A stretch of 64,000 nt of DNA from an uncultured Bacilli bacterium (lineage in GTDB: Bacteria > Bacillota_I > Bacilli_A > RF39 > UBA660), in contig CAKOYD010000004.1 in the NCBI GenBank assembly GCA_934130545.1, positions 16,780-80,779 of the forward strand, given 5' to 3'. The translations under genes and the position numbers were made by a program. The notes under the pieces were generated by a model. The model made no database searches. It was not told the origin of the DNA and saw only the letters and a list, made by a program, of their open reading frames with translations. Numbering within the stretch: the first letter of the stretch is position 1; each line of letters begins with the position of its first letter. Shown here piece by piece: positions 7,158-32,671 of the stretch.

Positions 7158-7208
7158 ACAATAATATTCAATAAAAATATGATATAATAATTAATTAGGA
7201 GGGATAAG

Positions 7209-7985
7209 ATGCAAAGTGAGCAAGAAATAATTGAAGAATTACTTACAAAATTTACACAAATAGCTGCACAAGGCTGGATTGAAAGTCATAGACAACATAA
7301 TACTGGTATAGGTAAAACTTTTGAAGATTTATTAGAAAAAGTTGAAGATAATTTGGGCGAACCTGATTACAAAGGTATTGAGTTAAAAACTCATAGAAAA
7401 AATAGCAACTCTTTTACAACACTGTTTACTGCTTGTCCAGATGGACCTAATCCTAGTGAAAATACTAGATTAAGAGAAACATATGGTGAAACATATGCTG
7501 ATTCAGGTTTAAAAACTCTTCACACCTCAATTTTTGCAACTAGGAAAACAACATACTTTAACAAATTTAAATTTCAAATGGAAGTAAATTATGAGGATAA
7601 AAAGATTTACCTACTTGTCTTTGATATGAACGAAGAATTAATTGAGAAAATTACATTCTGGACATTTGATTCTTTAAATAAAAAATTAGAAAAGAAATTA
7701 AAAATATTAGCTTTAGTGGATAGTAAAAGCAAAAAGGAAAATGGAAAAGAACTATTTAAATATGACAAAATAACAATTTGCAAATTCAAAAATTTTGATA
7801 AATTTTTGAAAGCCGTAGTTGATGGAAAAATAATGTTAGATATTCGTATCGGTGTTTATAAAAGTGGTCAATATTTTGGTAAAACACATGATCATGGAAC
7901 TGGATTTAGAATTAAAGAATCCAACTTAGAATGCTTATATGATATATTTGAGCTTAGAAGTTTTGAAGAAGAAAAGGAAGATTGA
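7209..7985 (+). CDS. Type IIP restriction endonuclease, MvaI/BcnI family
   Basis: GIGKTFEDLLE...GIELKTHRKNSNSFTTLFTACP and C-terminal GKIMLDIRIG...THDHGTGFRIKESNLECLY align by pattern with BcnI (GQILERQFG...GEFELKGMRN...LTLFHKKP; VLVMDLCID...PHDRGPHLRIPISKLDKLY). Convergent with the MTase gene. Confidence 0.7.
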   Translation: MQSEQEIIEELLTKFTQIAAQGWIESHRQHNTGIGKTFEDLLEKVEDNLGEPDYKGIELKTHRKNSNSFTTLFTACPDGPNPSENTRLRETYGETYADSGLKTLHTSIFATRKTTYFNKFKFQMEVNYEDKKIYLLVFDMNEELIEKITFWTFDSLNKKLEKKLKILALVDSKSKKENGKELFKYDKITICKFKNFDKFLKAVVDGKIMLDIRIGVYKSGQYFGKTHDHGTGFRIKESNLECLYDIFELRSFEEEKED

Positions 7986-7987
7986 GT

Positions 7988-9223
7988 TTAATCTTCTTTT
8001 TTCATTATTACAATATATTCATGTGCCATAGTAGATACCGTTTTCCCAGTTTGATTTGTGGGTGATGTTTTCTTAGGTTGCCTTTTATTTGGAATATTTC
8101 TTACAATTGTTTCAATATGTTTAAACCCATTTTGTTCAAAAACGTATCTTGTAAATTCATCTGTTGGTAATTCTATATCACTTACACGACGATTTCCAAC
8201 AACATAAGCACAAATTCCATTTTTCTTAATTATTTTACTTACATTTTTCATTGATTTTTTATAATCTCTATAGAATGACCATATTTCCTTTGCTCGTTTT
8301 GGCCTTTCAGCTTCTATTGTCTTAATTATTTCATCGAGTTGGTCAAAACCAGTTTTTTCAATATCAGTAGTTTTTCCACCCATTAACTTTTTGTCCAACT
8401 TTCTAGCATCTTCAATTCCTAGCCACTCATTTGATAAAGTAGAAAACTGTCCATATGCAACAGTAGTACCACTATCTCCATATGGTGGAGAAGTTATTAC
8501 AATATCAACTGAATTTTCTTGAATTAAATCATTTGGTATTTCTTCTGAAGAATTAAAGTTATATACTTCGTGATTATATATTTTATTTTCTTTTTCATAC
8601 TCAATATATCCATCTATGTTTCTTTTTACTTTTTCTTTGAATAACTCTATGGTATTAGGATTCCATGTTTCAATTTTCTCTTTTGGGATTCTATATAATT
8701 TGAATTCCCCATTTCTTGTTAAAGATACTTCCCTTAATGTTTCACTAAATGGAACCAAGAAGAAATCTTTTTCATCATCATCTTTTATATTATCAATAAA
8801 GTATTTAATAATTAATAAATCATTTATTTGTTTATCTTTAAACCAAAAATCAATATTATTAATATTTGGCTTTTCTAAATCAATACTTTTATTTGAAGTA
8901 ATATACTTTTCAAAATTTTTAAATAATGACTTTATATTGTTTATATCAACCTTTGTAACTTTAGATTTAGATATTAGTCTTGCCAATGGATTTAAATCTG
9001 TACCGATACATTTTAATCCTACAAGTGACCCCTCAACAAGCGATGTACCAGTTCCACAATATGGATCAAATAGCACACTCATTTCTTTTGTTTTGTATCT
9101 ATTTAATATTTCTCTTGCAACTTGTGGAATCATCATAGCTGGATAAATGTGAAAAGAATGTGTATATTCTTTTGTGTCAGCTCCAATGAAATCCCAAAAA
9201 TTATCTTCATATTTTTTACCCAT
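7988..9223 (-). CDS. DNA methyltransferase (amino-MTase; SPPY motif suggests N4-cytosine, M.MvaI/M.BcnI-like)
   Basis: Motif I LFDPYCGTGTS; motif IV DIVITSPPY; N-terminal HSFHIYPAMMIP typical of this MTase group. Ends 2 nt from the REase stop. Confidence 0.85.
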   Translation of the reverse strand: MGKKYEDNFWDFIGADTKEYTHSFHIYPAMMIPQVAREILNRYKTKEMSVLFDPYCGTGTSLVEGSLVGLKCIGTDLNPLARLISKSKVTKVDINNIKSLFKNFEKYITSNKSIDLEKPNINNIDFWFKDKQINDLLIIKYFIDNIKDDDEKDFFLVPFSETLREVSLTRNGEFKLYRIPKEKIETWNPNTIELFKEKVKRNIDGYIEYEKENKIYNHEVYNFNSSEEIPNDLIQENSVDIVITSPPYGDSGTTVAYGQFSTLSNEWLGIEDARKLDKKLMGGKTTDIEKTGFDQLDEIIKTIEAERPKRAKEIWSFYRDYKKSMKNVSKIIKKNGICAYVVGNRRVSDIELPTDEFTRYVFEQNGFKHIETIVRNIPNKRQPKKTSPTNQTGKTVSTMAHEYIVIMKKED

Positions 9224-9325
9224 TCATTTCACCTCATTCTATTTAATTATACCATATAATTTGATATTTTATCCTATTAAAATAATTTTCTAAGGAATTA
9301 TGAACTAATCATATTCCCTAGGCTT

Positions 9326-9598
9326 TTATATATAAATATCTACCATAATATTTTCTTTTAGTTTTTTTGCTCGTTCTAATCCACATGATTGTAATCTCTT
9401 CCTATATTTTTTTATATCATCATTGGTAATCTCAATAGTAGTTAAATACATATCCTTTGACTCAATATTTTGATTATAGACATTATTACAATTGTTTTCT
9501 ATATCATAAATATCTTTTAAATAATTTAATTTCCATTCTACAGTAATTTTTACAACATCAGTTAGTTGCAAAACACTAATTTTAATGATAAAATACAT
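9326..9598 (-). CDS. hypothetical small protein upstream of methyltransferase gene
   Basis: 90-aa ORF co-directional with the MTase; no recognisable HTH. Could be a controller-like or spurious ORF. Confidence 0.3.
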   Translation of the reverse strand: MYFIIKISVLQLTDVVKITVEWKLNYLKDIYDIENNCNNVYNQNIESKDMYLTTIEITNDDIKKYRKRLQSCGLERAKKLKENIMVDIYI

Positions 9599-9664
9599 TA
9601 TATAATCCGATTAATTAACAATACTTATAATCAATTTATAGATTTTAAGAAAGAAGTGACACTT

Positions 9665-10153
9665 ATGCTAAACATAGAAAAAATATATAAAGAAACAAAA
9701 TATTTAGACGATTTATTTTCATTACAATTTGATATCAAATCTCCTGAAATTATAAAAAAATATAAACTTGAATTATTGGTAGAATTTGGAGAACTAGCTA
9801 ACGAAACAAGATGTTTTAAATTTTGGTCAATAAATCAAACTGGTAAAAAAAATCGTATATTAGAAGAATATATTGACTGTTTATTTATGATATTATATTT
9901 TTGTAACATTACAAATGTATCTTTAAGGGAAAATTTTTCTGCAACAAGTAACAAGGATATTATAGAAACATTTCTGACACTTTATAAATTAGGAAATGAT
10001 TTAGTCCAAAAGCTTGAAAAAGAAACTGTAAAAAAATTATTAGTAGAAATACTATATCTTTCACAATTGCTTGAATTCACATTAGAAGATTTAACAAATG
10101 AAACGAAACGAAAAAGCCAAATTATTCAAAAAAGATTAAAAAGCAATTATTAA
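9665..10153 (+). CDS. dimeric dUTPase-like / all-alpha NTP pyrophosphatase (dUTPase_2 family)
   Basis: ELLVEFGELANETRCFKFWS...ILEEYIDCLFMILYF matches the dimeric dUTPase core. Start moved to MLNIEKIY (9665) because the ORF-track start 9566 overlaps the upstream ORF. Confidence 0.55.
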   Translation: MLNIEKIYKETKYLDDLFSLQFDIKSPEIIKKYKLELLVEFGELANETRCFKFWSINQTGKKNRILEEYIDCLFMILYFCNITNVSLRENFSATSNKDIIETFLTLYKLGNDLVQKLEKETVKKLLVEILYLSQLLEFTLEDLTNETKRKSQIIQKRLKSNY

Positions 10154-10435
10154 ATATATCTTTTTTTGTTTTTTTATTTATCTGATACTAAAAGTCTAAG
10201 TTTGAATAAATATGCAAAGAAAAAGTTCAACTTATAAGTCAAACTTAAAAAATTAAATCTTGAACAATTATATTTTCTTCTTCATTTTTATTTAATTTAT
10301 TATATTCCATAATTGCATTTATTATATATTGTTCTACATATCTTTTATCTCTTTGTTTTATTTCGGGTGGCAAAACATTTTCTATCTTTTCTTTATTGAA
10401 AGATATTTTATCATTTTGATTTCCCTTCTTTTCGT

Positions 10436-11134
10436 TTAATATTCTCTCTCTAATATGTCAAAATCAATTTTTTTATCTTTTGCAATCTTTTTAATTTTAA
10501 TTGCTTGTGCATGACTAGGTGTTACCAAACAATACTCAATAACTCCTAATACCAGTTTTTGTTCTGCAAATCCTAAATAAGATAACTCTACAGCTGGCTT
10601 TATACCCATAGTAAGACCGTTTTTATTTGTTTTTAAAACTGTTTCATCAACTAATGTTAATAATTCAGGTATTAAATAAGTTAATCTTATATATCTTCTT
10701 ACCATTTCTCCAGATTCACTATTTGCAATTGCATCTCTTGACTTATGCAACCCAGTTGCACATGTTTTTTTCCCTTGATGTTTTATAGCATCCATTTTCA
10801 TTTTATAAGCAAATGCCTTTTCACTCGGCAAAACTCTTTCTCTATATATATTAGAATCCACCATAAATATTGTAGCTTCATCATCATTGAGTTCTTTTAA
10901 TACAACTTCTATTTCTTGTATTCCTAAAATTTCTAATGCTTTCTTTCTTCTATGACCAGATATTAATTCATATCTTCCATTTTCTTTTTCTCTTACCACC
11001 ATAGGATTCAACAATCCATTTTCCTTAATACTTTTAACCAATTCCATTAACGAACTATCATTATTTACTAAAAATGGATGTTCTTTAAAATTATCTATCT
11101 TGCTTAGATTAACTTTAATTAATTTATCATTCAT
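10436..11134 (-). CDS. ParB-like nuclease domain protein (ParB/Srx N-domain)
   Basis: LNPMVVREKENGRYELISGHRRKKALEILG is the ParB N-terminal box. Confidence 0.7.
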   Translation of the reverse strand: MNDKLIKVNLSKIDNFKEHPFLVNNDSSLMELVKSIKENGLLNPMVVREKENGRYELISGHRRKKALEILGIQEIEVVLKELNDDEATIFMVDSNIYRERVLPSEKAFAYKMKMDAIKHQGKKTCATGLHKSRDAIANSESGEMVRRYIRLTYLIPELLTLVDETVLKTNKNGLTMGIKPAVELSYLGFAEQKLVLGVIEYCLVTPSHAQAIKIKKIAKDKKIDFDILEREY

Positions 11135-11610
11135 AACCTATCTTCTCCTTTAATTTCATAATTTAATTTCCAGTTTAAATATTCCTCATAAGATATTTCG
11201 TGCTTTTCTCTTTTTATTTTTTGCTTTTTCCATTCTTGTAATGAATTAATTAATAATTTAATCTCTGGCTTATTAATATTTTTGACTTGTGATAAATCTA
11301 ATCTATAATTTGGAATATACTCTTCAAGCCAAAAGAACAAATAAATTAAATCTTCAGGATTTTTATAATCATATTTCTTTAATGAATTAAAATTAACTTT
11401 AAGAAATTTGGCAATATCTTTTACTCTATCATCCTTTGGATTTCTATCTCCTTTCTCATATCTTGTCATCGTTCTTCTCTTGCATTCGCCAGTTAATCCC
11501 AAGTGTTCTGAAATTTTGTCCTGTGATAAATGTCTCAATTCTCTTACAAAAGCTATTCTAGATCCTTGAGATAAATCCCTTAATTCAGGTTTTACATACA
11601 ACAATCGCAT
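11131..11610 (-). CDS. XRE-family HTH transcriptional regulator
   Basis: LRELRHLSQDKISEHLGLTGECKRRTMTRYEKGDRNP is an HTH_3 pattern. Overlaps the parB-like gene by 4 nt (operon). Confidence 0.7.
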   Translation of the reverse strand: MRLLYVKPELRDLSQGSRIAFVRELRHLSQDKISEHLGLTGECKRRTMTRYEKGDRNPKDDRVKDIAKFLKVNFNSLKKYDYKNPEDLIYLFFWLEEYIPNYRLDLSQVKNINKPEIKLLINSLQEWKKQKIKREKHEISYEEYLNWKLNYEIKGEDRL

Positions 11611-11804: not shown

Positions 11805-14441
11805 TTACTTTCTATCCCCAGATTTGATTGCGGCTTGAGCAGCAGCAAGTCTAGCAATAGGTACTCTAAATGGTGAGCAAGAAACATATGTTAATCCAAC
11901 ATTATGACAGAATTCAACACTAGATGGATCTCCACCATGTTCTCCACAAATACCAAGTTTAATATTTGGTCTTGTAGCCTTACCTTTTTCTACCGCCATT
12001 TTAACCAATTGACCAACACCTACTTGATCTAATTTAGCAAATGGATCTTGTTCATAAATTTTCTTTTCATAATATGCACCTAGGAACTTACCAGCATCAT
12101 CTCTAGAAAAACCAAATGTCATTTGTGTTAAGTCATTAGTACCAAATGAGAAGAATTCAGCTTCAGTAGCAATTGCATCAGCAGTTAATGCTGCTCTTGG
12201 TATTTCAATCATAGTACCGATATGATACTCCATATCAGAACCTTTTTCTTTCTTAACAAGTTCAGCAGTTTCTACTACTATATCTTTAACATATTTTAAT
12301 TCTTTAACTTCTCCAACAAGTGGAATCATAATTTCAGGAACAATATCGTATCCTTCTTCTTCATGAACTTCAATTGCAGCTTCCATTAAAGCACGAGTTT
12401 GCATTCTAGCAATTTCTGGATAAGTAACTGCTAAACGGCATCCTCTATGACCCATCATTGGGTTAAATTCATGTAATTCGTTGCATACATCAATAATATG
12501 TTCTACAGTCATTCCCATAGCTTCAGCAAGTTCTTTCATTTCAGCTTCTGTTTTAGGAATAAACTCATGAAGTGGTGGATCAATATAACGTACAGTCATA
12601 GGTAATCCTTTTAATTCCTTATACATTTCTTTAAAGTCGCCTTTTTGATATGGAATTAATAAACTTAGATATTTTTCTCTATCTTCAACTGTTTCAGATA
12701 AAATCATTCTTCTTAAGTTAAATATTCTTTCTTCATCAAAGAACATATGTTCTGTACGACAAAGTCCAATACCTTCAGCACCTAATTCAATAGCTTTTCT
12801 AGTATCTTTTGGTGTATCAGCATTAGTTCTAACACCTAACTTACGATATTTATCAGCCCATGCCATAACACGACCAAATTCACCTGCTATAGTAGCATCA
12901 ACTGTTGGAATAGCACCATCATAAATATTACCAGTAGTACCATCAATAGAAATTATATCTCCCTCATGATATACTTTACCAGCTAAAGTAAATTCTTTCT
13001 TAGCTTCATTCATTATAATATCGCCACAACCAGATACACAGCAAGTACCCATGCCACGAGCAACAACTGCTGCATGAGATGTCATACCACCACGTACTGT
13101 TAAAATACCTTGAGCAGCTTTCATACCTGTAATATCTTCAGGAGAAGTTTCAAGTCTAACTAATACAACTTTCTCTCCTTTACCACCGATACCATAAGTA
13201 GCTGCATCTTCAGCAGTAAATACAACTTTACCACAAGCAGCACCAGGAGAAGCACCCAAACCTTTTCCGACAGGCATAGCAGCCTTTAAAGCTTTACTAT
13301 CAAATTGAGGATGTAATAATGTATCTAAGTTTCTAGGATCAATCATTAATACAGCTTCTTCTTCAGTTCTCATTCCTTCATCAACTAAATCACAAGCAAT
13401 CTTTAAAGCAGCTTGAGCAGTTCTCTTACCATTTCTTGTTTGTAACATGTATAATTTACCATGTTCTACAGTAAATTCCATATCTTGCATATCACGATAA
13501 TGGTTCTCTAAAGTAGTACATACTTTTTTAAATTCTTCAAAAGCTTCAGGGAATTTATCAGCCATTTCAGATATCTTCATTGGAGTTCTAACACCAGCAA
13601 CAACATCTTCACCTTGCGCATTAGTTAAGAATTCACCAAATAATCCTTTTTCACCAGTAGCAGGGTCTCTTGTAAAGGCAACACCTGTACCACAATCATC
13701 TCCCATATTACCAAATGCCATTGATTGAACATTAACAGCAGTTCCCCAAGAATATGGAATATCATTATCTCTACGATAAACATTAGCACGTGGATTATCC
13801 CAAGATCTAAATACAGCCTTAATAGCACCCATTAATTGTTCTTTTGGATCATCAGGAAAATCTACACCAATTTTAATTTTATATTCTTCTTTAAACTCTC
13901 TAGCTAATTCTTTTAAATCATCAGCAGTAAGTTCAACATCTAACTTAACATTCTTTTCTTCTTTCATCTTATCAATTAATTGTTCAAAGTATTTCTTACC
14001 AACTTCCATAACAACATCAGAATACATTTGAATAAATCTACGATAACAATCCCAAGCCCATCTAGGATTATTAGACTTTTCTGCAAGAACATTAACTACT
14101 TCTTCATTTAAACCTAAATTAAGAATAGTATCCATCATACCAGGCATACTAGCTCTAGCACCACTTCTAACAGAAACTAATAATGGATTTTCTTTATCTC
14201 CAAATTTCTTTCCTGTAATCTCTTCCATCTTAACAATATACTCATTAATTTGGCTTTGAATTTCATCATTAATTGTACGTCCATCTTCATAGTACTTAGT
14301 ACAAGCTTCAGTAGTAATAGTAAATCCCTGTGGAACTGGCAAACCAATATTTGTCATTTCCGCTAAATTAGCACCTTTACCACCAAGAAGGTTTCTCATA
14401 TCAGCATTACCTTCTGTAAACAAATAAACATATTTTGTCAT
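11805..14441 (-). CDS. ppdK: pyruvate, phosphate dikinase
   Basis: 878 aa. N-terminal FTEGNADMRNLLGGKGANLAEM, phosphohistidine region GGMTSHAAVVARGMG, C-terminal PEP-utilising domain. Confidence 0.95.
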   Translation of the reverse strand: MTKYVYLFTEGNADMRNLLGGKGANLAEMTNIGLPVPQGFTITTEACTKYYEDGRTINDEIQSQINEYIVKMEEITGKKFGDKENPLLVSVRSGARASMPGMMDTILNLGLNEEVVNVLAEKSNNPRWAWDCYRRFIQMYSDVVMEVGKKYFEQLIDKMKEEKNVKLDVELTADDLKELAREFKEEYKIKIGVDFPDDPKEQLMGAIKAVFRSWDNPRANVYRRDNDIPYSWGTAVNVQSMAFGNMGDDCGTGVAFTRDPATGEKGLFGEFLTNAQGEDVVAGVRTPMKISEMADKFPEAFEEFKKVCTTLENHYRDMQDMEFTVEHGKLYMLQTRNGKRTAQAALKIACDLVDEGMRTEEEAVLMIDPRNLDTLLHPQFDSKALKAAMPVGKGLGASPGAACGKVVFTAEDAATYGIGGKGEKVVLVRLETSPEDITGMKAAQGILTVRGGMTSHAAVVARGMGTCCVSGCGDIIMNEAKKEFTLAGKVYHEGDIISIDGTTGNIYDGAIPTVDATIAGEFGRVMAWADKYRKLGVRTNADTPKDTRKAIELGAEGIGLCRTEHMFFDEERIFNLRRMILSETVEDREKYLSLLIPYQKGDFKEMYKELKGLPMTVRYIDPPLHEFIPKTEAEMKELAEAMGMTVEHIIDVCNELHEFNPMMGHRGCRLAVTYPEIARMQTRALMEAAIEVHEEEGYDIVPEIMIPLVGEVKELKYVKDIVVETAELVKKEKGSDMEYHIGTMIEIPRAALTADAIATEAEFFSFGTNDLTQMTFGFSRDDAGKFLGAYYEKKIYEQDPFAKLDQVGVGQLVKMAVEKGKATRPNIKLGICGEHGGDPSSVEFCHNVGLTYVSCSPFRVPIARLAAAQAAIKSGDRK

Positions 14442-14566: not shown

Positions 14567-15158
14567 CTAATTATTCTTACCTTTTTTTCTTTCTCTTATA
14601 AGTTTTCTCCTTATTTTAGGAACCAAAGAATTATAATATTGTAATCTCTCATCGCTATTCATCACAGATACTGGATTATCTAAATTATTTCCATATCTTA
14701 ATTTAATTAATTCTATATCATCATCTGGTAAAATCTTTAAGACATTATCAATTTCTTCTCTAGTATAATCACTAAAAAGTTCATATATAGTTGCTTGCCT
14801 TTTCCTTGTATTACTTCTTAACTTATTAATATTACTACTTATTATTCTAAAAACAACATCTTTAGAAATAGACATCATATCAGCTATCTCTTGTTGAGTA
14901 TGTGCTTTTCCATCATAAAAACCAAAATATAACATTATTACCTTTAGATCTCGTTCCTTCAAACGTCTCATAATATTCATATATCATCCTATTATAATCT
15001 TTTTCAATATATTCATCTTCTATATCAATTTCACTAGGAATAACATACCCTAATTGAATATCTCCCTGCTTCATCTTTTTAAATAAAATTAATACTTCTT
15101 CTTTAGATGACTTTTTAGGAAGTTGTTTTGTATCTATAAATAATTCATAATAATTCAT
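14567..15158 (-). pseudogene. frameshifted/internally deleted paralog of the downstream sigma-70-like gene
   Basis: ORF 14913..15158 (MNYYELFIDTKQLPKKSSKEEVLILFKKMKQGD) matches the N-terminus of the 699-aa protein but lacks region 2. It shifts frame into ORF 14567..14980 (IMLYFGFYDGK...region 4 plus one 40-aa repeat unit). Confidence 0.5.
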
Positions 15159-15180
15159 CTTGGTATCTCCATTTCTATAA

Positions 15181-17280
15181 TTACTTATTCTTACTTCTTT
15201 TTAACGTATTACCTCTATTACTTAGCAAACGTTCCATCTTACGCACTAAATAAGTATAAAATCTAACTCTTTCATAAAAATTTATAGCAGATACTGGATT
15301 ATCTAAATCATTTCCATATCTTAATCTTAATAATTCTTTATCTTCATCTGATAATTCTTCTATCATTTCATTTATTTCTTCTCTAGTATAATCACTTAAA
15401 AGTTCATATATTGTTCTTAATTTCTTTTTACAATTATCATCTTTAATTGCTTCCATACCATTTTCTAATAATTGCATGTTTTCTCTTAATTTACCAAGAC
15501 TTTCCTTTATTAATTTATAAATATATGTTGTAGAAACTGGCATCATGTTTGATATCTCAAAAACACTATACCTTTTACCATCCACAAATCCAAAATAAAG
15601 ACTTATTATTCTTCTATTACGTTCATTCAAACATTCCATGCTTTGTTGTAGTAACTTCAACTGTGCATCATCATATATTTTTTTAATATAATCTCTTTCC
15701 ATATCTACTTTACTTAGAAGAATATTTCTTAATTTAACATTATTACCAAATTTATCAGGATAAATAATATCATCAAAACTAATTTTATCTTGATAAGTAT
15801 TTAATTCTTTCAAAAACATATTTATTTCTTCATTAATACATTTTTTTGCATACAATAAAAAGTCTCTATCGTCTGATTTACTATAAATATCAACAGCCTT
15901 AACAAGTCCAAGACATCCAATTGCTACTAACTCTTTTTTATCATAACAAACATCCATAAAATTATTTTTAACATATTGGATAACTAAACCAATATTCTTA
16001 GTAATTAACTCTTCTCTTGCTTTCATATCTCCCTGTCTTAATCTTCTCAATAATGCCAATACTTCCTTCTTGGTTAATTCTTTAAAAAAGACATCACAAA
16101 TAAATAAATCATTACAACTTATACGAGTTCCACTATCTTCTAATGTATTTTCATTATTACCTGTTTTTGCTAATAAACGTTTCATTTTAGGATATAAACA
16201 AGAATAGAACTTACATCTTTGTTCATAATCAATTGTAGATACTGGATTATCTAAATCATTACCATATCTTAATCTCAATAATTCTTTATCTTCATCTGAT
16301 AATTCGCTTATTACCTTATCTATTTCTTCTCTAGTATAATCTCCTAAAAGTTCATATATAGTTTGTAATTTATTAGACTTGTTATTAAATCCTACTTTAC
16401 ATGCCAATATTTTTTTCATTTTAGGAACTAAATAAGAGTTAAACATACCATTATTCTTATGATCTATTATGGATACTGGATTGTCTAAATCATTTCCATA
16501 TCTTAATCTCAATAATTCTTTATCTTCATCTGATAATTCTTCTATTATTTCATCTATTTCTTCTCTAGTATAATCACTTAAAAGTTCATATATAGTTCTT
16601 ATGTTTAACTGCCTTTTTCTTATTGGTTCATTGCCAAGTTCTAATCGTTGTATATTTTCTTTCATATGTTCTAAACTGTCATTCATTATTTCATATATAC
16701 GTGTATGACTTACATTCATCATATCTGCTATCTCTCGATGAGTATATATCTTACCATCATAAAATCCAAAATAAAGCATAATTATTTTCTTACTACGTTC
16801 ATTTAAACAGTTCATACTTTGCTGTAATAATCCATACATATAATTATTATAATCTTTCTCTTCAAACATTTCTTCAATACTAACATCATCAGACAAATTA
16901 TCCTTTAACTTAACACCATTAAATCCATCATCAAAACTTAAAATATTACTATCTTTATTTAATCTATTTATAAAGTATTCTATCTCTCTATGAATATAAT
17001 TCCCAATATGTGTTGAAAAATATTTATGCTTTAACATATCAAAATTATCAATACCTTTAATAAGTCCAAGACATCCAACTGCTACCAATTCTCTCTTATC
17101 ACAACATACATCATTAAAATTATTTTTAACACATTGAATAACTAAATCAATATTACCACTAATTAACTCTTCTCTAGCTTTCATATCTCCTTGTTTCATT
17201 CTATCAAATAATACTAGTACTTCTTTATTCGATAATCTTTTAGGAATCTCTCCATCAATAAATAATTCATTATTTTTCAT
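15181..17280 (-). CDS. sigma-70-family protein with two tandem SigH-like modules and four region-4.1-like repeat units
   Basis: Two copies of region 2 (DLVIQCVKNNF...GCLGLIKGIDNF and GLVIQYVKNNF...GCLGLVKAVDIY) and of region 4 (IIMLYFGFYDGKIYTHREIADMMNVSHTRIY / IISLYFGFVDGKRYSVFEISNMMPVSTTYIY). Several copies of TIYELLSDYTREEIDE.IEELSDEDKELLRLRYGNDLDNPVS. Confidence 0.7.
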   Translation of the reverse strand: MKNNELFIDGEIPKRLSNKEVLVLFDRMKQGDMKAREELISGNIDLVIQCVKNNFNDVCCDKRELVAVGCLGLIKGIDNFDMLKHKYFSTHIGNYIHREIEYFINRLNKDSNILSFDDGFNGVKLKDNLSDDVSIEEMFEEKDYNNYMYGLLQQSMNCLNERSKKIIMLYFGFYDGKIYTHREIADMMNVSHTRIYEIMNDSLEHMKENIQRLELGNEPIRKRQLNIRTIYELLSDYTREEIDEIIEELSDEDKELLRLRYGNDLDNPVSIIDHKNNGMFNSYLVPKMKKILACKVGFNNKSNKLQTIYELLGDYTREEIDKVISELSDEDKELLRLRYGNDLDNPVSTIDYEQRCKFYSCLYPKMKRLLAKTGNNENTLEDSGTRISCNDLFICDVFFKELTKKEVLALLRRLRQGDMKAREELITKNIGLVIQYVKNNFMDVCYDKKELVAIGCLGLVKAVDIYSKSDDRDFLLYAKKCINEEINMFLKELNTYQDKISFDDIIYPDKFGNNVKLRNILLSKVDMERDYIKKIYDDAQLKLLQQSMECLNERNRRIISLYFGFVDGKRYSVFEISNMMPVSTTYIYKLIKESLGKLRENMQLLENGMEAIKDDNCKKKLRTIYELLSDYTREEINEMIEELSDEDKELLRLRYGNDLDNPVSAINFYERVRFYTYLVRKMERLLSNRGNTLKRSKNK

Positions 17281-17344
17281 ATAAAATCACCATTAATCCC
17301 CTTAAGTAGCCATTATTATACCACAATTTTAAAAAAATACTAGA

Positions 17345-17566
17345 TTATTTTAATACATCCAAAAAAGATTGAATCATATTAATATTATCTAGTACTTTAT
17401 TTAACTTATCTTTTCTAGTTAACTTATACTTATCCAACATATCATTATAAAATTCTTTAAATAAATAAGGATCTCTATTTAAATACTTATACCAATAACT
17501 ATTTTCTCTAATAAATCTTTGTAATCTAGGATCAGATTTAATTTTATACTGTGTTTCTAAATCCAT
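17345..17566 (-). CDS. small conserved protein, YlbE-like
   Basis: DPRLQRFIRENSYWYKYLNRDPYLF resembles Bacillus YlbE as I recall it (…WYRKLSRNP…). Weak, memory-based. Confidence 0.35.
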   Translation of the reverse strand: MDLETQYKIKSDPRLQRFIRENSYWYKYLNRDPYLFKEFYNDMLDKYKLTRKDKLNKVLDNINMIQSFLDVLK

Positions 17567-17937
17567 TAATCTTCAAATCTCTTATAGATAGCGCGTGGTT
17601 GATAAGTATTAGTTGTACCACTACTTCCTTTATTTACAAACAATTCTGAAAATAGTCCTAAAGCTTTCTGTAAAGAAGTAATACCATTCTGCACCTTATC
17701 AACATCAATATTTTTAGCCATATTAACTAAATCATTTAAACTAGTTGATTTACTAGACTTACTTTCTTCCACAGTAGGTTTTAAATACTTCTCCCAAGCC
17801 TTATTATCTTCTCCGTATAAGTCATACACTTCATATATTTTTTGCCAAGAATCATTATTATTTTTTACATACGTTATTAAAGATGGATTCTTTCTAACAA
17901 ATGATTTAAAATCATCAATATTAGCCATATAAATCAC
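17566..17937 (-). CDS. conserved hypothetical, YlbD-like (putative coat-associated)
   Basis: Pairs with the ylbE-like gene (1-nt overlap); FKSFVRKNPSLITYVKNNNDSWQKIYE pattern. Weak assignment. Confidence 0.35.
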   Translation of the reverse strand: MIYMANIDDFKSFVRKNPSLITYVKNNNDSWQKIYEVYDLYGEDNKAWEKYLKPTVEESKSSKSTSLNDLVNMAKNIDVDKVQNGITSLQKALGLFSELFVNKGSSGTTNTYQPRAIYKRFED

Positions 17938-17961
17938 CTATTACATTATATGCAATAAATA

Positions 17962-20289
17962 TTATTTATTTGTCGTTTTATTTCTCTTCTTAAATATTTT
18001 TCGATATATTTCTTCATAATCACTAACAAATATTATCTCTAATCCTTCTTTTATTATATCATCTATTTCTTCGATATCATTACTATTATCTTTAGAAATA
18101 AAAACTGTTTTAATACCACATCTTTTAGCGGCTATTAACTTTTCTTTAAGTCCTCCTACTGGTAATATTTTACCACGTAAAGTAATCTCTCCTGTCATAC
18201 TAATATCATTAGGTACTGGTTTATCTAAAAATAAACTAATTAATGTTGTTAATATTGTAATACCCGCTGATGGACCATCTTTTGGTATAGAACCTGATTC
18301 AAAGTGAATATGAATATCATTATTATCTAATATATCACTATTTATTCCATAATTATCACAATTAGATTTAATATAACTTAAAGCTATCTCTACTGATTCT
18401 TTCATTACTTCTCCAATAGAACCCGTAATATTTATATTACCTTTACCCTTAAAATATATTGCTGACGTCTTTAGTACCATCCCACCATATGGTGTATATG
18501 CTAAAGTATTAACTACTCCCGAAGTATTATTCTCTAAACTATCATCAACATTATATTTATAATTACCTAAATAAGAAGTAATATTATCATTATCTATAAA
18601 ATAAACACTTCTCTTATTAAACTCATCTTCGACAATAATCTTTCTAACTAAACTCTCTAATATTCTTTCTAACTCTCTTACTCCTGACTCTTTAGTATAA
18701 TAATTAATAATTATCTTAATAGCTTCTTTACTAATACTAATATTCTCCATCTTATAAGAAGATAACATCTTAGGCACTAAGTAATTTCTAGCTATCTCTA
18801 TCTTTTCATACTCTGTATAACTAGATAGTTCTATTATTTCTAAACGATCCTTCAAAGCTTCCGGAATAGTATTAACATTATTAGCGGTCAATATAAACAT
18901 TACTTTTGACAAATCAAACTTTTCTTCTATATAATTATCTATAAACATACTATTTTGTTCTTTATCTAATATATCTAATAATGTTGTTGATACATCTTTA
19001 CGATAATCTTTAGTAATCTTATCTATTTCATCAATTAAGAATACTGGATTATTAACTCCACACTTACGTATTCCCTGAATTATCTTACCAGGATAAGCTC
19101 CTATATAAGTCTTACGATGTCCCATTATTTCTGCGTCATCAATAATACTACCTACACTAACCTTAACAAACTTTCTATCTAAAACATTAGCAATAGACTT
19201 AGCTAAAGTAGTCTTACCAACACCAGAAGGCCCTACTAAACATATAATTGGACTATTTAAATCATCACTCTTACTCTTAGAAGCTATATATTCTAATATT
19301 CTATTCTTTATCTTACTAAGTCCATAATGTGATTTATCTAACTTATTCTTAATATCTTTTATATCTTTATTATCTATTGTTGAAGTATTCCACGGAAGAT
19401 TAATTAACCAATCAATATAGTTTCTAATAATACCTATCTCGGCTGAAGTAGCAGGCATTAACTCATATCTAGATATCTCTTCATTAAGTCTATCTATTAT
19501 ATAACTAGGAGCATCCATCTTATTAATCTTATCTTTAAGTTTCTTAATATCTCCCTCTTTTATATCTAATTCCCCTATTTCTTCCTTAATCAACTTAATC
19601 TTTTCTTTTAATATATAATTTTTTTGCTCTTCATCTAATCTATCTCTAAGTTTAGACTCAATACTATTCTCTAACTTAACAGTTTCTATCTCTTTATGTA
19701 AATCTTCTATTAAAAGTTTAGTACGATACATTGAATTAGATATCTCTATATATTTAAACTTATCATTATATGATAACGGTAATTCTGAAATAATAATATC
19801 TGATATTCTCCCTAAATTATTTAACCCATTAATTCTTCCTAAAACATTATTAGACATATTAGAGGATATCTCTATAAACTCTTCTAAGTTCTTAAATAAT
19901 ACTCTCTTTAAAGCTGTCGCCTCTAACTCATTATAATCATAATCTTTAGTAGGAATAATAAAAGCCTCTACTATCTTATTATCATCTTCAAAATAATTTA
20001 ATACTTCTACTCTATCAATACCTACTAAAACTAATCTAATATTCTTATTAGGTAATACTAACTTAGATTTAATTTTAGCTAAGATAGCTATCTTAGGAAG
20101 TTCTCTTAAATTAGGACTCTCTTCTAAAGAATCTAGGTTATTTACTAACAAAATATTCCCATCATGGATTGATTCACTAAGTTCTATTATTTTCTTATCT
20201 CTTTCAAGATTAAACTCAACCCTAAGTTCATTATAAGGAAACAAAATTAAGTCATGCAAAAATAATATTGGTAAATTAGTTTCAACCAT
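17962..20289 (-). CDS. lon: ATP-dependent protease La (LonA)
   Basis: Lon N-domain, AAA+ Walker A GPSGVGKTTLAKSIA, C-terminal protease domain with DGPSAGITI (catalytic Ser). Confidence 0.95.
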   Translation of the reverse strand: MVETNLPILFLHDLILFPYNELRVEFNLERDKKIIELSESIHDGNILLVNNLDSLEESPNLRELPKIAILAKIKSKLVLPNKNIRLVLVGIDRVEVLNYFEDDNKIVEAFIIPTKDYDYNELEATALKRVLFKNLEEFIEISSNMSNNVLGRINGLNNLGRISDIIISELPLSYNDKFKYIEISNSMYRTKLLIEDLHKEIETVKLENSIESKLRDRLDEEQKNYILKEKIKLIKEEIGELDIKEGDIKKLKDKINKMDAPSYIIDRLNEEISRYELMPATSAEIGIIRNYIDWLINLPWNTSTIDNKDIKDIKNKLDKSHYGLSKIKNRILEYIASKSKSDDLNSPIICLVGPSGVGKTTLAKSIANVLDRKFVKVSVGSIIDDAEIMGHRKTYIGAYPGKIIQGIRKCGVNNPVFLIDEIDKITKDYRKDVSTTLLDILDKEQNSMFIDNYIEEKFDLSKVMFILTANNVNTIPEALKDRLEIIELSSYTEYEKIEIARNYLVPKMLSSYKMENISISKEAIKIIINYYTKESGVRELERILESLVRKIIVEDEFNKRSVYFIDNDNITSYLGNYKYNVDDSLENNTSGVVNTLAYTPYGGMVLKTSAIYFKGKGNINITGSIGEVMKESVEIALSYIKSNCDNYGINSDILDNNDIHIHFESGSIPKDGPSAGITILTTLISLFLDKPVPNDISMTGEITLRGKILPVGGLKEKLIAAKRCGIKTVFISKDNSNDIEEIDDIIKEGLEIIFVSDYEEIYRKIFKKRNKTTNK

Positions 20290-20448: not shown

Positions 20449-20664
20449 TTAACCAAAATCTTTATCTTTATCCCCTTCACAATATCCTTCCCCTATTTTA
20501 TCTCCTTCAATATATTCTTTATTCATAACCTGACAACTCATCTTGGTAACAGTATCTTTTAAATAACCACCAAATATTCTAACTAAACCAATAGCTACTA
20601 CTGTTATTAAAGATATAATTAATACATATTCAACCAAAGTCTGACCTTTTCTATTTAACTTCAT
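20449..20664 (-). CDS. Flp/Fap family type IVb pilin (class III signal peptide)
   Basis: MKLNRKGQTLVEYVLIISLITVVAI matches the Flp G/xTxxEYxLI prepilin motif. Confidence 0.65.
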   Translation of the reverse strand: MKLNRKGQTLVEYVLIISLITVVAIGLVRIFGGYLKDTVTKMSCQVMNKEYIEGDKIGEGYCEGDKDKDFG

Positions 20665-23415: not shown

Positions 23416-23529
23416 TCATATACACCTCTATTTAATTATATCAAAAATAAAACCTAAAGTAATTATTTTCTACTAAATTATACACTTTTAATAAGAAAAA
23501 TATGTAAAAACATGTTCTACATATCCCAC

Positions 23530-25381: not shown

Positions 25382-25440
25382 TCTATATCACCTTATATCC
25401 ATTATAACACAAAGAAAGGGATACTATACTCCTAATATCC

Positions 25441-30251: not shown

Positions 30252-31427
30252 CTATTTAACTACTACAGTCTCATCATACTTTGTCACATAACCTGCATAT
30301 TTATCATGAATACTTTGATAATTTTTTAATAAATCATCATTTAACTTACTAAAAGGTATAACTCTAAAGTCAGTATAATCATCATAATAAGTATACAATA
30401 ATTCATTATAATCATTATTTATCTTAATGTCTACCTTATCATCTTCAATTACCTTAGTAATTTTTACTGAAGACATTAAACCAACTCTATTAGATACATC
30501 TTTAACACTATGGGCTGATAAGAAATTACCAAGTGAATATATGACTAAAGTGTCTCCTATATGTTCAATAGGTCCAACTACATGAGAGTGTGTTCCAATA
30601 ACAATATCCACTCCTAAAGAAGCTAAATACTCTGCAGCATCTTCTTGATAAGTAGTTTTATCAAAATTATATTCTTCTCCAAAATGCATAGCCACCATTA
30701 AGACATCTACTTTATCTCTTAATTTTTCTATATCACTTTTAACTACTGCTTTATAGTTTTCATAAGCACTTTTAGAACTTGTTGGCCAAATATTTACATA
30801 GTATTCTTTCCCATTAGGTACACTAATACCATTTGTACCATAAGTATAATTTAATAAAGCATATTTGATATTATTTTTTTCTTTGATAACTACTGCGTCT
30901 CTATCTTCTTCGCTACAATAACTACCAACTGCTAATACATCACTATGTTCTTTCCAATACTTACAAGAGTTTTCTACTGCTTTACTACCTCTATCAAGGG
31001 TATGGTTAGTAGCTAAACTAACCATGTTAAAGCCCGCATCAATCATAGCATCTCCTACTTCATATGGTGAATTAAAAGCCGGATAAGAAGATACTCCTAT
31101 ATCAGAACCTCCTAAAATTGTTTCTTGGTTATAATAAGCTAAATCATAATCTTTGGCAATATTTTTTATTTCTGTTACCATTGGTTTAAAATCATAACCA
31201 TTTCCTTTAGCATTTTCTTCTGCTTCTTCATATATATAATCATGAATAAGCATATCTCCAACCATTAGTAAAGACAATTTATATTCTTTATTTTTAGTAT
31301 TATTATTACTTTCTTTAACATTAATATCATCATGAATATTATTACTATTAAATGATCCGCCATGATTAATAAAAACTATTCCTACTACTAATAAAGCAAT
31401 TATAAATAAATAACTTAACTTTTTCAT
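30252..31427 (-). CDS. CapA/PgsA-family metallophosphatase (poly-gamma-glutamate/capsule synthesis-like)
   Basis: MVSLATNHTLD, LAYYNQETILGG, signal-anchor N-terminus. Confidence 0.7.
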   Translation of the reverse strand: MKKLSYLFIIALLVVGIVFINHGGSFNSNNIHDDINVKESNNNTKNKEYKLSLLMVGDMLIHDYIYEEAEENAKGNGYDFKPMVTEIKNIAKDYDLAYYNQETILGGSDIGVSSYPAFNSPYEVGDAMIDAGFNMVSLATNHTLDRGSKAVENSCKYWKEHSDVLAVGSYCSEEDRDAVVIKEKNNIKYALLNYTYGTNGISVPNGKEYYVNIWPTSSKSAYENYKAVVKSDIEKLRDKVDVLMVAMHFGEEYNFDKTTYQEDAAEYLASLGVDIVIGTHSHVVGPIEHIGDTLVIYSLGNFLSAHSVKDVSNRVGLMSSVKITKVIEDDKVDIKINNDYNELLYTYYDDYTDFRVIPFSKLNDDLLKNYQSIHDKYAGYVTKYDETVVVK

Positions 31428-31432
31428 CTTAT

Positions 31433-32671
31433 CTACCCCATTGGTACTACTTCAATATTACTATCCATGCTTTGAACGACTTCTTTATATTTATTATATA
31501 CTCTTTCACTATCAGGTAAATACTCTCTAATATCTGAATTACTAAAAGGTATTACTTTAAAATTACTAAATCTATTATTATAATAAGTATAAGTTAAATC
31601 ATTCTTAACATTATCAATAGTAATACTAACATCATCTCCAACTACTTTCTTATTAATAGTTAAACTACTCATAAGACCTATTACACATTTATAATCAGGG
31701 CAACTATAATCTCCTGCTGACACATTAATATCACTATATTGTGCTGATAAGAAATTACCAAGTGAATAAAATACTACTGTATCATTAATATATTCAACAG
31801 GTTCTATAACATGTGGATGTGTTCCAATAATAATATCTACTCCTAAAGATTCTAAATATTTAGCAGCATCTTTTTGATAACCAGTTGGTGTATGAGTATA
31901 TTCAACGCCCCAATGCATTGCCACTATCAAAACATCTACTTTATCTCTAACTTTTTCAATATCACTTTTAACTACTTCTTTATAACTTTCATATGCTGCA
32001 TCAGAACTTGTTGGCCATACATTAACATAATAATCTTCATAAGTAGGAAGTCCATTTGTTCCATAAGTATAATTTAATAAAGCATATTTAATATTATTTT
32101 TCTCTTTGATAATTACTTCATTTCTATCTTCTTCACTACAATAACTACCAACTGCTAATACATCGCTATGTTCTTTCCAATACTTACAAGAGTTTTCAAC
32201 ACCATTTCTTCCGGCATCCATTGTATGATTAGTAGCTAGACTCACCATATTAAAACCAGCATCAATCATCGCATCTCCTACTTCATATGGTGAATTAAAT
32301 CTTGGATAATGACTAGCACCACCTCCAAGTATTGTCTCTTGATTATAATAAGCTAAATCATAATTACTAACATAATCTTTAATATAACTAACTATTGGTT
32401 TAAAATCATAACCATTATAATTAGCTAACTTATGAGCATAATCATATACTGCTGCATGAATTAAATTATCTCCTACCATAACTAATGATAAAGAATAATT
32501 TTCTTCTTTTGGTTTATCATCAGGTTTATCATCAATAATATTATTATGTATTTCTTGATGATCCGCTAAATATTTAACATATAATCCTGCTCCAACTATT
32601 ACTATAGCTAGGAAGAATATAACAATAAATGCATTATTACCTTTAGTATTACTTTTTCTTTTTCTCGCCAT
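31433..32671 (-). CDS. CapA/PgsA-family metallophosphatase, tandem paralog
   Basis: Same motifs (MVSLATNHTMD); paralog of CDS 30252..31427 as judged from the shared motif blocks. Confidence 0.7.
   Translation of the reverse strand: MARKRKSNTKGNNAFIVIFFLAIVIVGAGLYVKYLADHQEIHNNIIDDKPDDKPKEENYSLSLVMVGDNLIHAAVYDYAHKLANYNGYDFKPIVSYIKDYVSNYDLAYYNQETILGGGASHYPRFNSPYEVGDAMIDAGFNMVSLATNHTMDAGRNGVENSCKYWKEHSDVLAVGSYCSEEDRNEVIIKEKNNIKYALLNYTYGTNGLPTYEDYYVNVWPTSSDAAYESYKEVVKSDIEKVRDKVDVLIVAMHWGVEYTHTPTGYQKDAAKYLESLGVDIIIGTHPHVIEPVEYINDTVVFYSLGNFLSAQYSDINVSAGDYSCPDYKCVIGLMSSLTINKKVVGDDVSITIDNVKNDLTYTYYNNRFSNFKVIPFSNSDIREYLPDSERVYNKYKEVVQSMDSNIEVVPMG

Follow-up and report, generated by a model that had tools for sequence, protein, structure and literature searches.

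The window analysed in this work, 64,000 nucleotides of contig CAKOYD010000004.1 from an uncultured Bacilli bacterium of the human gut (assembly GCA_934130545.1), hosts on its minus strand an open reading frame (ORF) of 699 codons whose product holds two complete sigma modules. By domain content the protein is a member of the Sigma70 family, and comparison with neighbouring and allelic genes shows that two adjacent cassettes, belonging to a tandem array of SigE/SigK-type sigma genes, were joined in frame to form it. We infer, with moderate confidence, that the protein is a functional bivalent sigma factor generated by a recombining cassette array. Sigma factors carry one sigma2 and one sigma4 domain per polypeptide, one sigma serving each polymerase, and to our knowledge no natural protein with two complete sigma modules has been described. 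A full-text search of the literature retrieved nothing on double sigma factors, or on the repeated domain, called T, which accompanies the two modules.

Sigma modules and T domains of the 699-aa protein

The original prediction placed the gene between ppdK and the ylbDE-like and lon genes, and assigned to it two complete sigma modules. Both claims are borne out. Pfam Sigma70_r2 (33.4 bits against a cut-off of 24) and Sigma70_r4, which covers the helix-turn-helix (HTH) of sigma4 (85.2 bits against 24.1), are each matched in two stretches of the protein. Hidden Markov models (HMMs) made from the protein's own parts set the borders of the two cores and the three T domains (Table 1), and the order sigma2A-sigma4A-T1-T2-sigma2B-sigma4B-T3 is closed by a short C-terminal motif. 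The G+C content of the window is ~25%, at which ~9% of random codons are stops, and the chance of finding 699 open codons is, by simple arithmetic, ~1e-28. In the full-length AlphaFold2 model (mean predicted local distance difference test, pLDDT, 72) seven folded helical domains are connected by disordered linkers, the helical sigma2 domains spanning residues 18-109 and 404-493.

Table 1. Coordinates of the fused gene, its parts and its surroundings in the window.
Feature	Position	Strand	Remarks
699-aa sigma ORF	15181..17280	minus	single ORF of 699 codons; stop codon TAA
Sigma module A, residues 1-215	16636..17280	minus	sigma2 ~16954-17229, sigma4 ~16639-16878; core HMM, Pfam, AlphaFold2
T1, residues 228-296	16393..16599	minus	sigma4-derived domain, ~68 aa
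T2, residues 306-374	16159..16365	minus	missing from the 618-aa allele of other strains (alignment gap)
Fusion junction, residues 373-388, TGNNENTLEDSGTRIS	16117..16164	minus	old gene end, spacer and start codon, now translated
Former start codon, ATG to ATA (Ile387)	16120-16122	minus	by comparison with the intact boundary 15120-15235
Sigma module B, residues 386-607	15460..16125	minus	sigma2 ~15802-16071, sigma4 ~15442-15693
T3, residues 622-690	15211..15417	minus	T HMM
C-terminal motif NTLKRSKNK	15184..15210	minus	ends nearly every array gene, whatever the last domain
81-aa ORF	14913..15158	minus	start of degraded third cassette; N-terminal 33 residues, sigma2 deleted, then frameshift
137-aa ORF	14567..14980	minus	sigma4 HTH and fourth T (14588-14794); Pfam Sigma70_r4 E = 5e-10, T HMM
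Extended -10-like element, TGGTATAAT	17315..17323	minus	35 nt upstream of the ATG; consensus match only
ppdK	11805..14441		one flank of the 699-aa gene
ylbE/ylbD/lon	17345..20289		other flank; beyond it ftsQ, murB, murG

The two modules score 256 (A) and 228 (B) bits with the family core HMM, and the family patterns of regions 2.1/2.2 and 4.1 are kept in both. They had been predicted to be SigH-like, an identity which was rejected: no SigH model occurs among the 25 best NCBIfam families, which are led by SigK and SigE, with ~205 of the 235-241 profile positions aligned per module (residues 396-604 in module B). Membership in SigE or SigK was rejected as well. Bits summed over the two modules fall far below the curated cut-offs (208.5 against 252 for NF004471, 197.2 against 339 for NF006158, 195.9 against 298.65 for TIGR02846, 193.4 against 348.6 for TIGR02835). 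Moreover, the profile alignments begin at position 27 (SigK) or 35 (SigE), and the pro-sequence is thus absent; module A opens with the mature-type ELFI..P..LS motif. The generic TIGR02937 model is matched with 129.9 bits against a cut-off of 42.9, and the modules match SigF, SigK and SigA region 2 among sequences of the PDB. An extracytoplasmic function (ECF) sigma factor fused to a regulatory domain does not describe the protein, the best specific matches being to group 3 sigmas and the extension being itself sigma-derived. Similarly, MzaA of the MZA anti-phage system was discarded: the NCBIfam score is 63.5 bits against a cut-off of 800, the PADLOC match (37.7 bits) is restricted to sigma2, and Mza neighbours are missing.

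The modules differ in region 2.3/2.4. The consensus of the wider family carries TYA.RCI.NEI, as in SigE/SigK. Module A reads STHIGNYIHREI, departing from the near-invariant TYA..C..N, and has His, Ile, Tyr and Arg at sites which in at least 90% of the family are occupied by Tyr, Ala, Cys and Asn; the His replaces the Tyr equivalent to Y430 of sigma70. Module B is nearer to the consensus, and carries a canonical YA..CI.EEI motif.

Three independent tests, profile alignment and structure modelling among them, concur that T is a copy of sigma4 minus the first HTH helix. Alignment by hhalign of 178 T units to the sigma4 domains of the same proteins covers 59 columns (87.5% probability, E = 3.6e-6), and a 7-residue gap falls exactly at the first HTH helix. 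A model built by AlphaFold2 from 50 aligned T sequences (pLDDT 91.7) has helices at positions 12-21, 24-34 and 47-68. The pattern of the domain is TIYE-x4-Y-x11-L-x10-RYG-x-DL-x-NP ... FY-x2-L-x-PKMK-x2-L, and the four copies of the locus, three in the 699-aa ORF and one in the next, match their own HMM at E ~1e-40 to 1e-41. The original prediction had counted all four units within the 699-aa ORF, and had given them a length of 40 aa; the number and the length need revision, the unit being a folded domain of ~68 aa. The likeness to sigma region 4.1, devoid of HTH, was correctly perceived: when T is aligned to sigma profiles, the match is limited to region 4.1. No dedicated T model is present in Pfam or NCBIfam, in which only sub-threshold matches to region 4.1 were obtained, and no solved structure includes T, the best match being SigA region 4.1 (E = 0.003). 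In the 699-aa protein the T domains are acidic, with net charges of -3 to -6.

Fusion of cassettes in a strain-variable array

The origin of the fusion can be read by comparing the junction between T2 and module B to the intact boundary found downstream (15120-15235), in which the gene end NTLKRSKNK is followed by a stop, by AATGGAGATACCAAG, and by an ATG. At the T2-to-B junction the stop and part of the spacer are lost, GGAG is changed to GGAA, and ATG to ATA; the former spacer is translated as ...NENTLEDSGTRIS.... A small deletion took out the stop codon of cassette A, and the ATG of cassette B subsequently decayed to ATA. The next canonical in-frame start is Met419, inside region 2.1. Because of the decay of the start codon, module B can be produced only within the 699-aa protein, and the peptide stretch TGNNENTLEDSGTRISCNDLF, if detected, would mark the expressed fusion. 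A homologous junction is present in the 618-aa allele carried by other strains, and suggests that the fusion happened once.

The array is variable among strains, a point which, like the small deletion behind the fusion and the size of the T family, had escaped the original prediction. The flanking DNA, from lon to ylbE on one side and ppdK on the other, is 97-99% identical across all variants, and the neighbouring proteins are 97-100% identical, with ratios of nonsynonymous to synonymous substitution rates (omega, dN/dS) of 0 to 0.12. A cassette consists of a two-domain sigma core (C, sigma2 plus sigma4) with one or two T domains behind it; in relatives the usual layout is core-T-R, R being a C-terminal sigma4-like HTH domain (hhalign probability 97.7% against sigma4). 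At least five architectures reside between the flanks. Three include fused genes (one gene per pair of brackets): [C-T-T-C-T] plus a remnant, as in the window; [C][C-T-C-T][C-T-R][C]; and [C-T-T-C-T][C-T-T-R], in which the first gene encodes 688 aa. Two are unfused, [C-T-T][C-T-T-R] and [C][C], the latter found in the species representative of GTDB. Proteins differ by 45-57% between cassette types, and by 0-39% among strains within one type. Cassettes are mosaic, sigma2 and sigma4 halves having been swapped between them. As an example, module A of the window and the 618-aa allele differ at 3 of 115 codons in the sigma4 half, with a synonymous rate (dS) of 0, and reach a dS of 0.40 in the sigma2 half; against the 373-aa gene of a further strain, the two halves behave the other way round. 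Double-core ORFs are confined to the source species in the set of 80 species loci examined; a few very long T-family proteins of other species hold extra partial cores.

The remnant is what is left of a third cassette, degraded, which starts with the 81-aa ORF. The 137-aa ORF has its own ATG, with AGGA 6 nt upstream, and, instead of being dead, might yield a sigma4-T protein that stands alone. A close source of the remnant cassette was not found among the sampled arrays.

Almost all genes of the array end in NTLKRSK(NK/IN/SN), also in other loci (L006, L009, L090 and L092), and a decayed NTLKRSK copy is embedded in the fusion junction. In the wider family the ending is a looser S-L-x-x-K-K. 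The sequence might act as a degron or serve in docking. Counted from the array, lon is the third gene upstream, after ylbE and ylbD.

Function of the fused protein and alternative explanations

Among 12 cassettes, the highest mean pairwise identity is found in regions which, in known sigma factors, bind core polymerase (0.74 in 2.2, 0.62 in 2.1, 0.58 in 4.1), and the lowest in regions which read DNA (0.47 in 2.3-2.4, 0.37 in the recognition helix of 4.2). Sigma factors that are at work, and whose promoter specificities have diversified, are expected to show such a profile. Module B, which has no start codon of its own, has remained free of stops and frameshifts over 314 codons, and the alleles sharing the junction have B modules only 74% identical (dS = 0.42). 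Between these alleles omega is 0.34 for module B as a whole (confidence interval 0.22-0.56); its sigma2 domain taken alone gives 0.28, and its sigma4 domain 0.25. In the linker (9 aligned residues, 44% identical) it is ~1.1, over too few sites to be informative. The remnant cassette next door shows decay, with its sigma2 deletion and frameshift. All dN/dS values are approximate because cassettes recombine, and whole-gene dN/dS was dropped as a clean measure of selection on account of the recombination breakpoints (in module A, dS of 0 against 0.40).

According to the reading favoured here, that of a bivalent sigma factor, either module would dock on core RNA polymerase through the conserved 2.1/2.2 and 4.1 surfaces, and each would read its own promoter class through the diverged 2.3/2.4 and 4.2 helices. 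The undocked module and the T domains would trail upstream of the promoter, providing extra sigma4-like interaction surfaces. The roles suggested in the original prediction, a tethered sigma pair, a decoy or an anti-sigma-like scaffold, are each conceivable.

Several observations weigh against this reading. The unfused alleles [C-T-T][C-T-T-R] and [C][C] tell that fusion is not required. Fused forms predominate in the set of alleles, but the sample was seeded with the fused protein, and their predominance is biased. Module A might not open promoters, because four near-invariant positions of region 2.3/2.4 are altered in it. Omega of the fused gene is five to ten times above that of the housekeeping neighbours, and gene conversion templated by intact paralogs could preserve the open frame of module B with no selection acting on the fusion. 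The full-length AlphaFold2 model, with a predicted template modelling score of 0.25, is uninformative on the arrangement of the domains.

Two alternatives deserve discussion, both of them unlikely in our opinion. Module B might be the sole active sigma, module A and the T domains serving as tethered sigma-like surfaces, regulatory or decoy, for other partners. Module A is indeed unusual at positions kept by at least 90% of the family, and T has a sigma4 fold with an incomplete HTH and a net acidic charge. Proteins made of T repeats and a C-terminal sigma4-like domain exist as well, suggesting that T works without a sigma core. Yet, the 2.3/2.4 region of A type is conserved across the A-type cassettes of different strains, and this speaks for a function that was altered but kept, not for decay; region 2.1/2.2 of module A is as conserved as in other cassettes, and one strain has an A-type cassette as a gene of its own (C-T-T, 373 aa). 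The partners, moreover, are candidates only: anti-sigma-type proteins, sigma4-targeting phage proteins, the beta-flap of a second polymerase, or activators.

The fusion could alternatively be an evolutionary by-product, a nearly neutral accident that is tolerated, adds nothing over two separate sigmas, and is maybe decaying. We hold this improbable too. The co-occurrence in one species of five architectures, including unfused and T-less forms, the degraded cassette directly downstream, the omega raised relative to the neighbours, and the possibility that recombination refreshes ORFs are all in line with this view. It is at odds with a junction common to alleles whose B modules have diverged to the extent reported above and are still uninterrupted, and with the omega values of the sigma2 and sigma4 domains of module B, which are both far under 1. 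Fused alleles are found on dozens of contigs, though in a biased sampling.

Separate tandem genes collapsed or mis-joined in a repeat-rich region, the artefact that the original prediction had feared, are effectively refuted: the identical 699-aa protein is on 26 listed contigs from independent gut metagenome assemblies, and the 22 examined, obtained in several independent studies (Hadza and Nepal cohorts, among others) with different assemblers, carry the same locus, downstream remnant included; identity among the DNA repeats inside the gene is just 70-80%, at which an assembler would not collapse them; the junction is made of specific point changes, not of a chimeric breakpoint, and has a homologous counterpart in a diverged allele.

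The locus, the T family and related systems

The order of genes at the locus is murG-murB-ftsQ-lon-ylbD-ylbE-array-ppdK. The typical surroundings of the sporulation sigmas are spoIIGA-sigE-sigG, or a stand-alone sigK; among the scanned neighbours of the array no spoIIGA gene was found. In some related genomes a plain cassette is located downstream of murG-murB-ftsQ, which we take to be roughly the type of position occupied by sigE and sigG in Bacillus. Extended -10 sequences (TGnTATAAT) number 24 in the window, against 15.3 expected by chance. They are often found just upstream of gene starts, including those of the 699-aa ORF, ylbD, murG and a response-regulator gene; examples on the minus strand are 17315-17323, 18053-18061, 23435-23443 and 25401-25409. 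A 71-aa ORF between ftsQ and lon (20449-20664, minus strand) is conserved in all the strain variants, and has no Pfam hit. A second strain-variable island lies beyond ppdK (window ~7200-11610), and encodes an HTH_19 protein, a ParB_N protein, a dUTPase_2 and a DNA methylase; strains with flanks 97-99% identical (L006, L089, L090) have ORF6N, WYL or other genes instead downstream of ppdK. Two tandem paralogous ORFs of 391 and 412 aa (30252-31427 and 31433-32671, minus strand) match weakly, far below cut-off, the MslH lasso-peptide epimerase.

T appears to define a large, previously undescribed family of uncultured gut Bacilli. Searching 1.84 billion representative proteins with the T profile retrieved 1349 proteins at E <= 1e-3, of which 855 also pass E <= 1e-10; a single protein may contain as many as 21 T units. 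Among the architectures are the following: a SigE/SigK-like core followed by a variable number of T domains and R; an RpoD-like protein (regions 1.2, 2, 3 and 4) followed by 2 to 13 T domains and R, up to ~1700 aa long; T domains and R with no sigma core; and T domains located N-terminal to a core. The third type is exemplified by a protein of 718 aa (P0005; locus L095, 5001-7157), formed by seven T units and a C-terminal sigma4-like domain, whose gene adjoins tex and nrdD in a housekeeping-looking context. The giant RpoD-like proteins are represented by P0154-P0163 and by loci L049, L051, L055, L067 and L094. No identifiable dnaG gene is next to them in the loci inspected; one gene follows a phage integrase, and one is close to SIR2, deaminase and Mrr_cat genes. 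Because of this context they cannot be called housekeeping sigmas. An origin of the T and R domains in phages or plasmids found no support in phage, plasmid and viral-contig collections: the T-only protein has no tblastn match in INPHARED phages or PLSDB plasmids, scanning of IMG/VR with the family pattern gave no relatives, and the T model has no significant fold match in BFVD.

SigE and SigK, sporulation sigmas of group 3 in Bacillota, score higher with both modules than any other named family, and share with them the sigma2-linker-sigma4 build. The array proteins differ from them in the sub-cut-off scores, the lack of a pro-sequence, the T domains, the organization in variable tandem arrays and, here, the paired fusion. 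Small sigma4-like proteins, namely YlxM/UPF0122 and phage late regulators of the RinA/ArpU type, gave sub-threshold matches; T is set apart by its tandem repetition and by the missing first helix of the HTH. ECF sigmas with C-terminal extensions (ECF41, ECF42, SigJ), SnoaL-like or TPR, are known, in which the extension modulates sigma activity (PMC7826278, PMC3426412, PMC5766207). The array proteins resemble them in combining, in one polypeptide, a compact sigma2-sigma4 core and extra C-terminal domains. In contrast to these ECFs, the extension is derived from sigma4 (T, and R in relatives), may reach 21 repeats, and includes in the 699-aa protein a whole second core. A term search of the ECF re-classification paper did not find the double-sigma architecture.

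Split sigmas, as Bacillus SigO-RsoA and T4 gp55/gp33, and synthetic swaps of ECF sigma2 and sigma4 domains show that the two domains are separable and recombinable. The natural mosaic cassettes described in this work mirror the engineered swaps. Yet, split and engineered systems are either one sigma made by two proteins or laboratory products, whereas here two sigmas are joined in a natural protein.

A broader, speculative scenario, which we consider doubtful, is that the ylbE-ppdK locus is a natural system of combinatorial sigma diversification, in which recombination reshuffles halves, T repeats and cores, sometimes fusing them, and provides strains with specific promoter specificities. T repeats would be sigma4 mimics, either tethering partners to RNA polymerase or soaking up sigma4-targeting factors such as phage anti-sigmas, and the double sigma would have been selected, and be no accident.

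The existence of a double-module protein raises the question whether a single chain may act at two classes of promoter, link two polymerases, or control its own activity. The T family spans SigE/SigK-like sigmas, RpoD-like sigmas and proteins free of a sigma core. Shuffling of sigma2 and sigma4 domains at the strain level would be the natural counterpart of engineered chimeras, and an unusual form of regulatory variation within a species.

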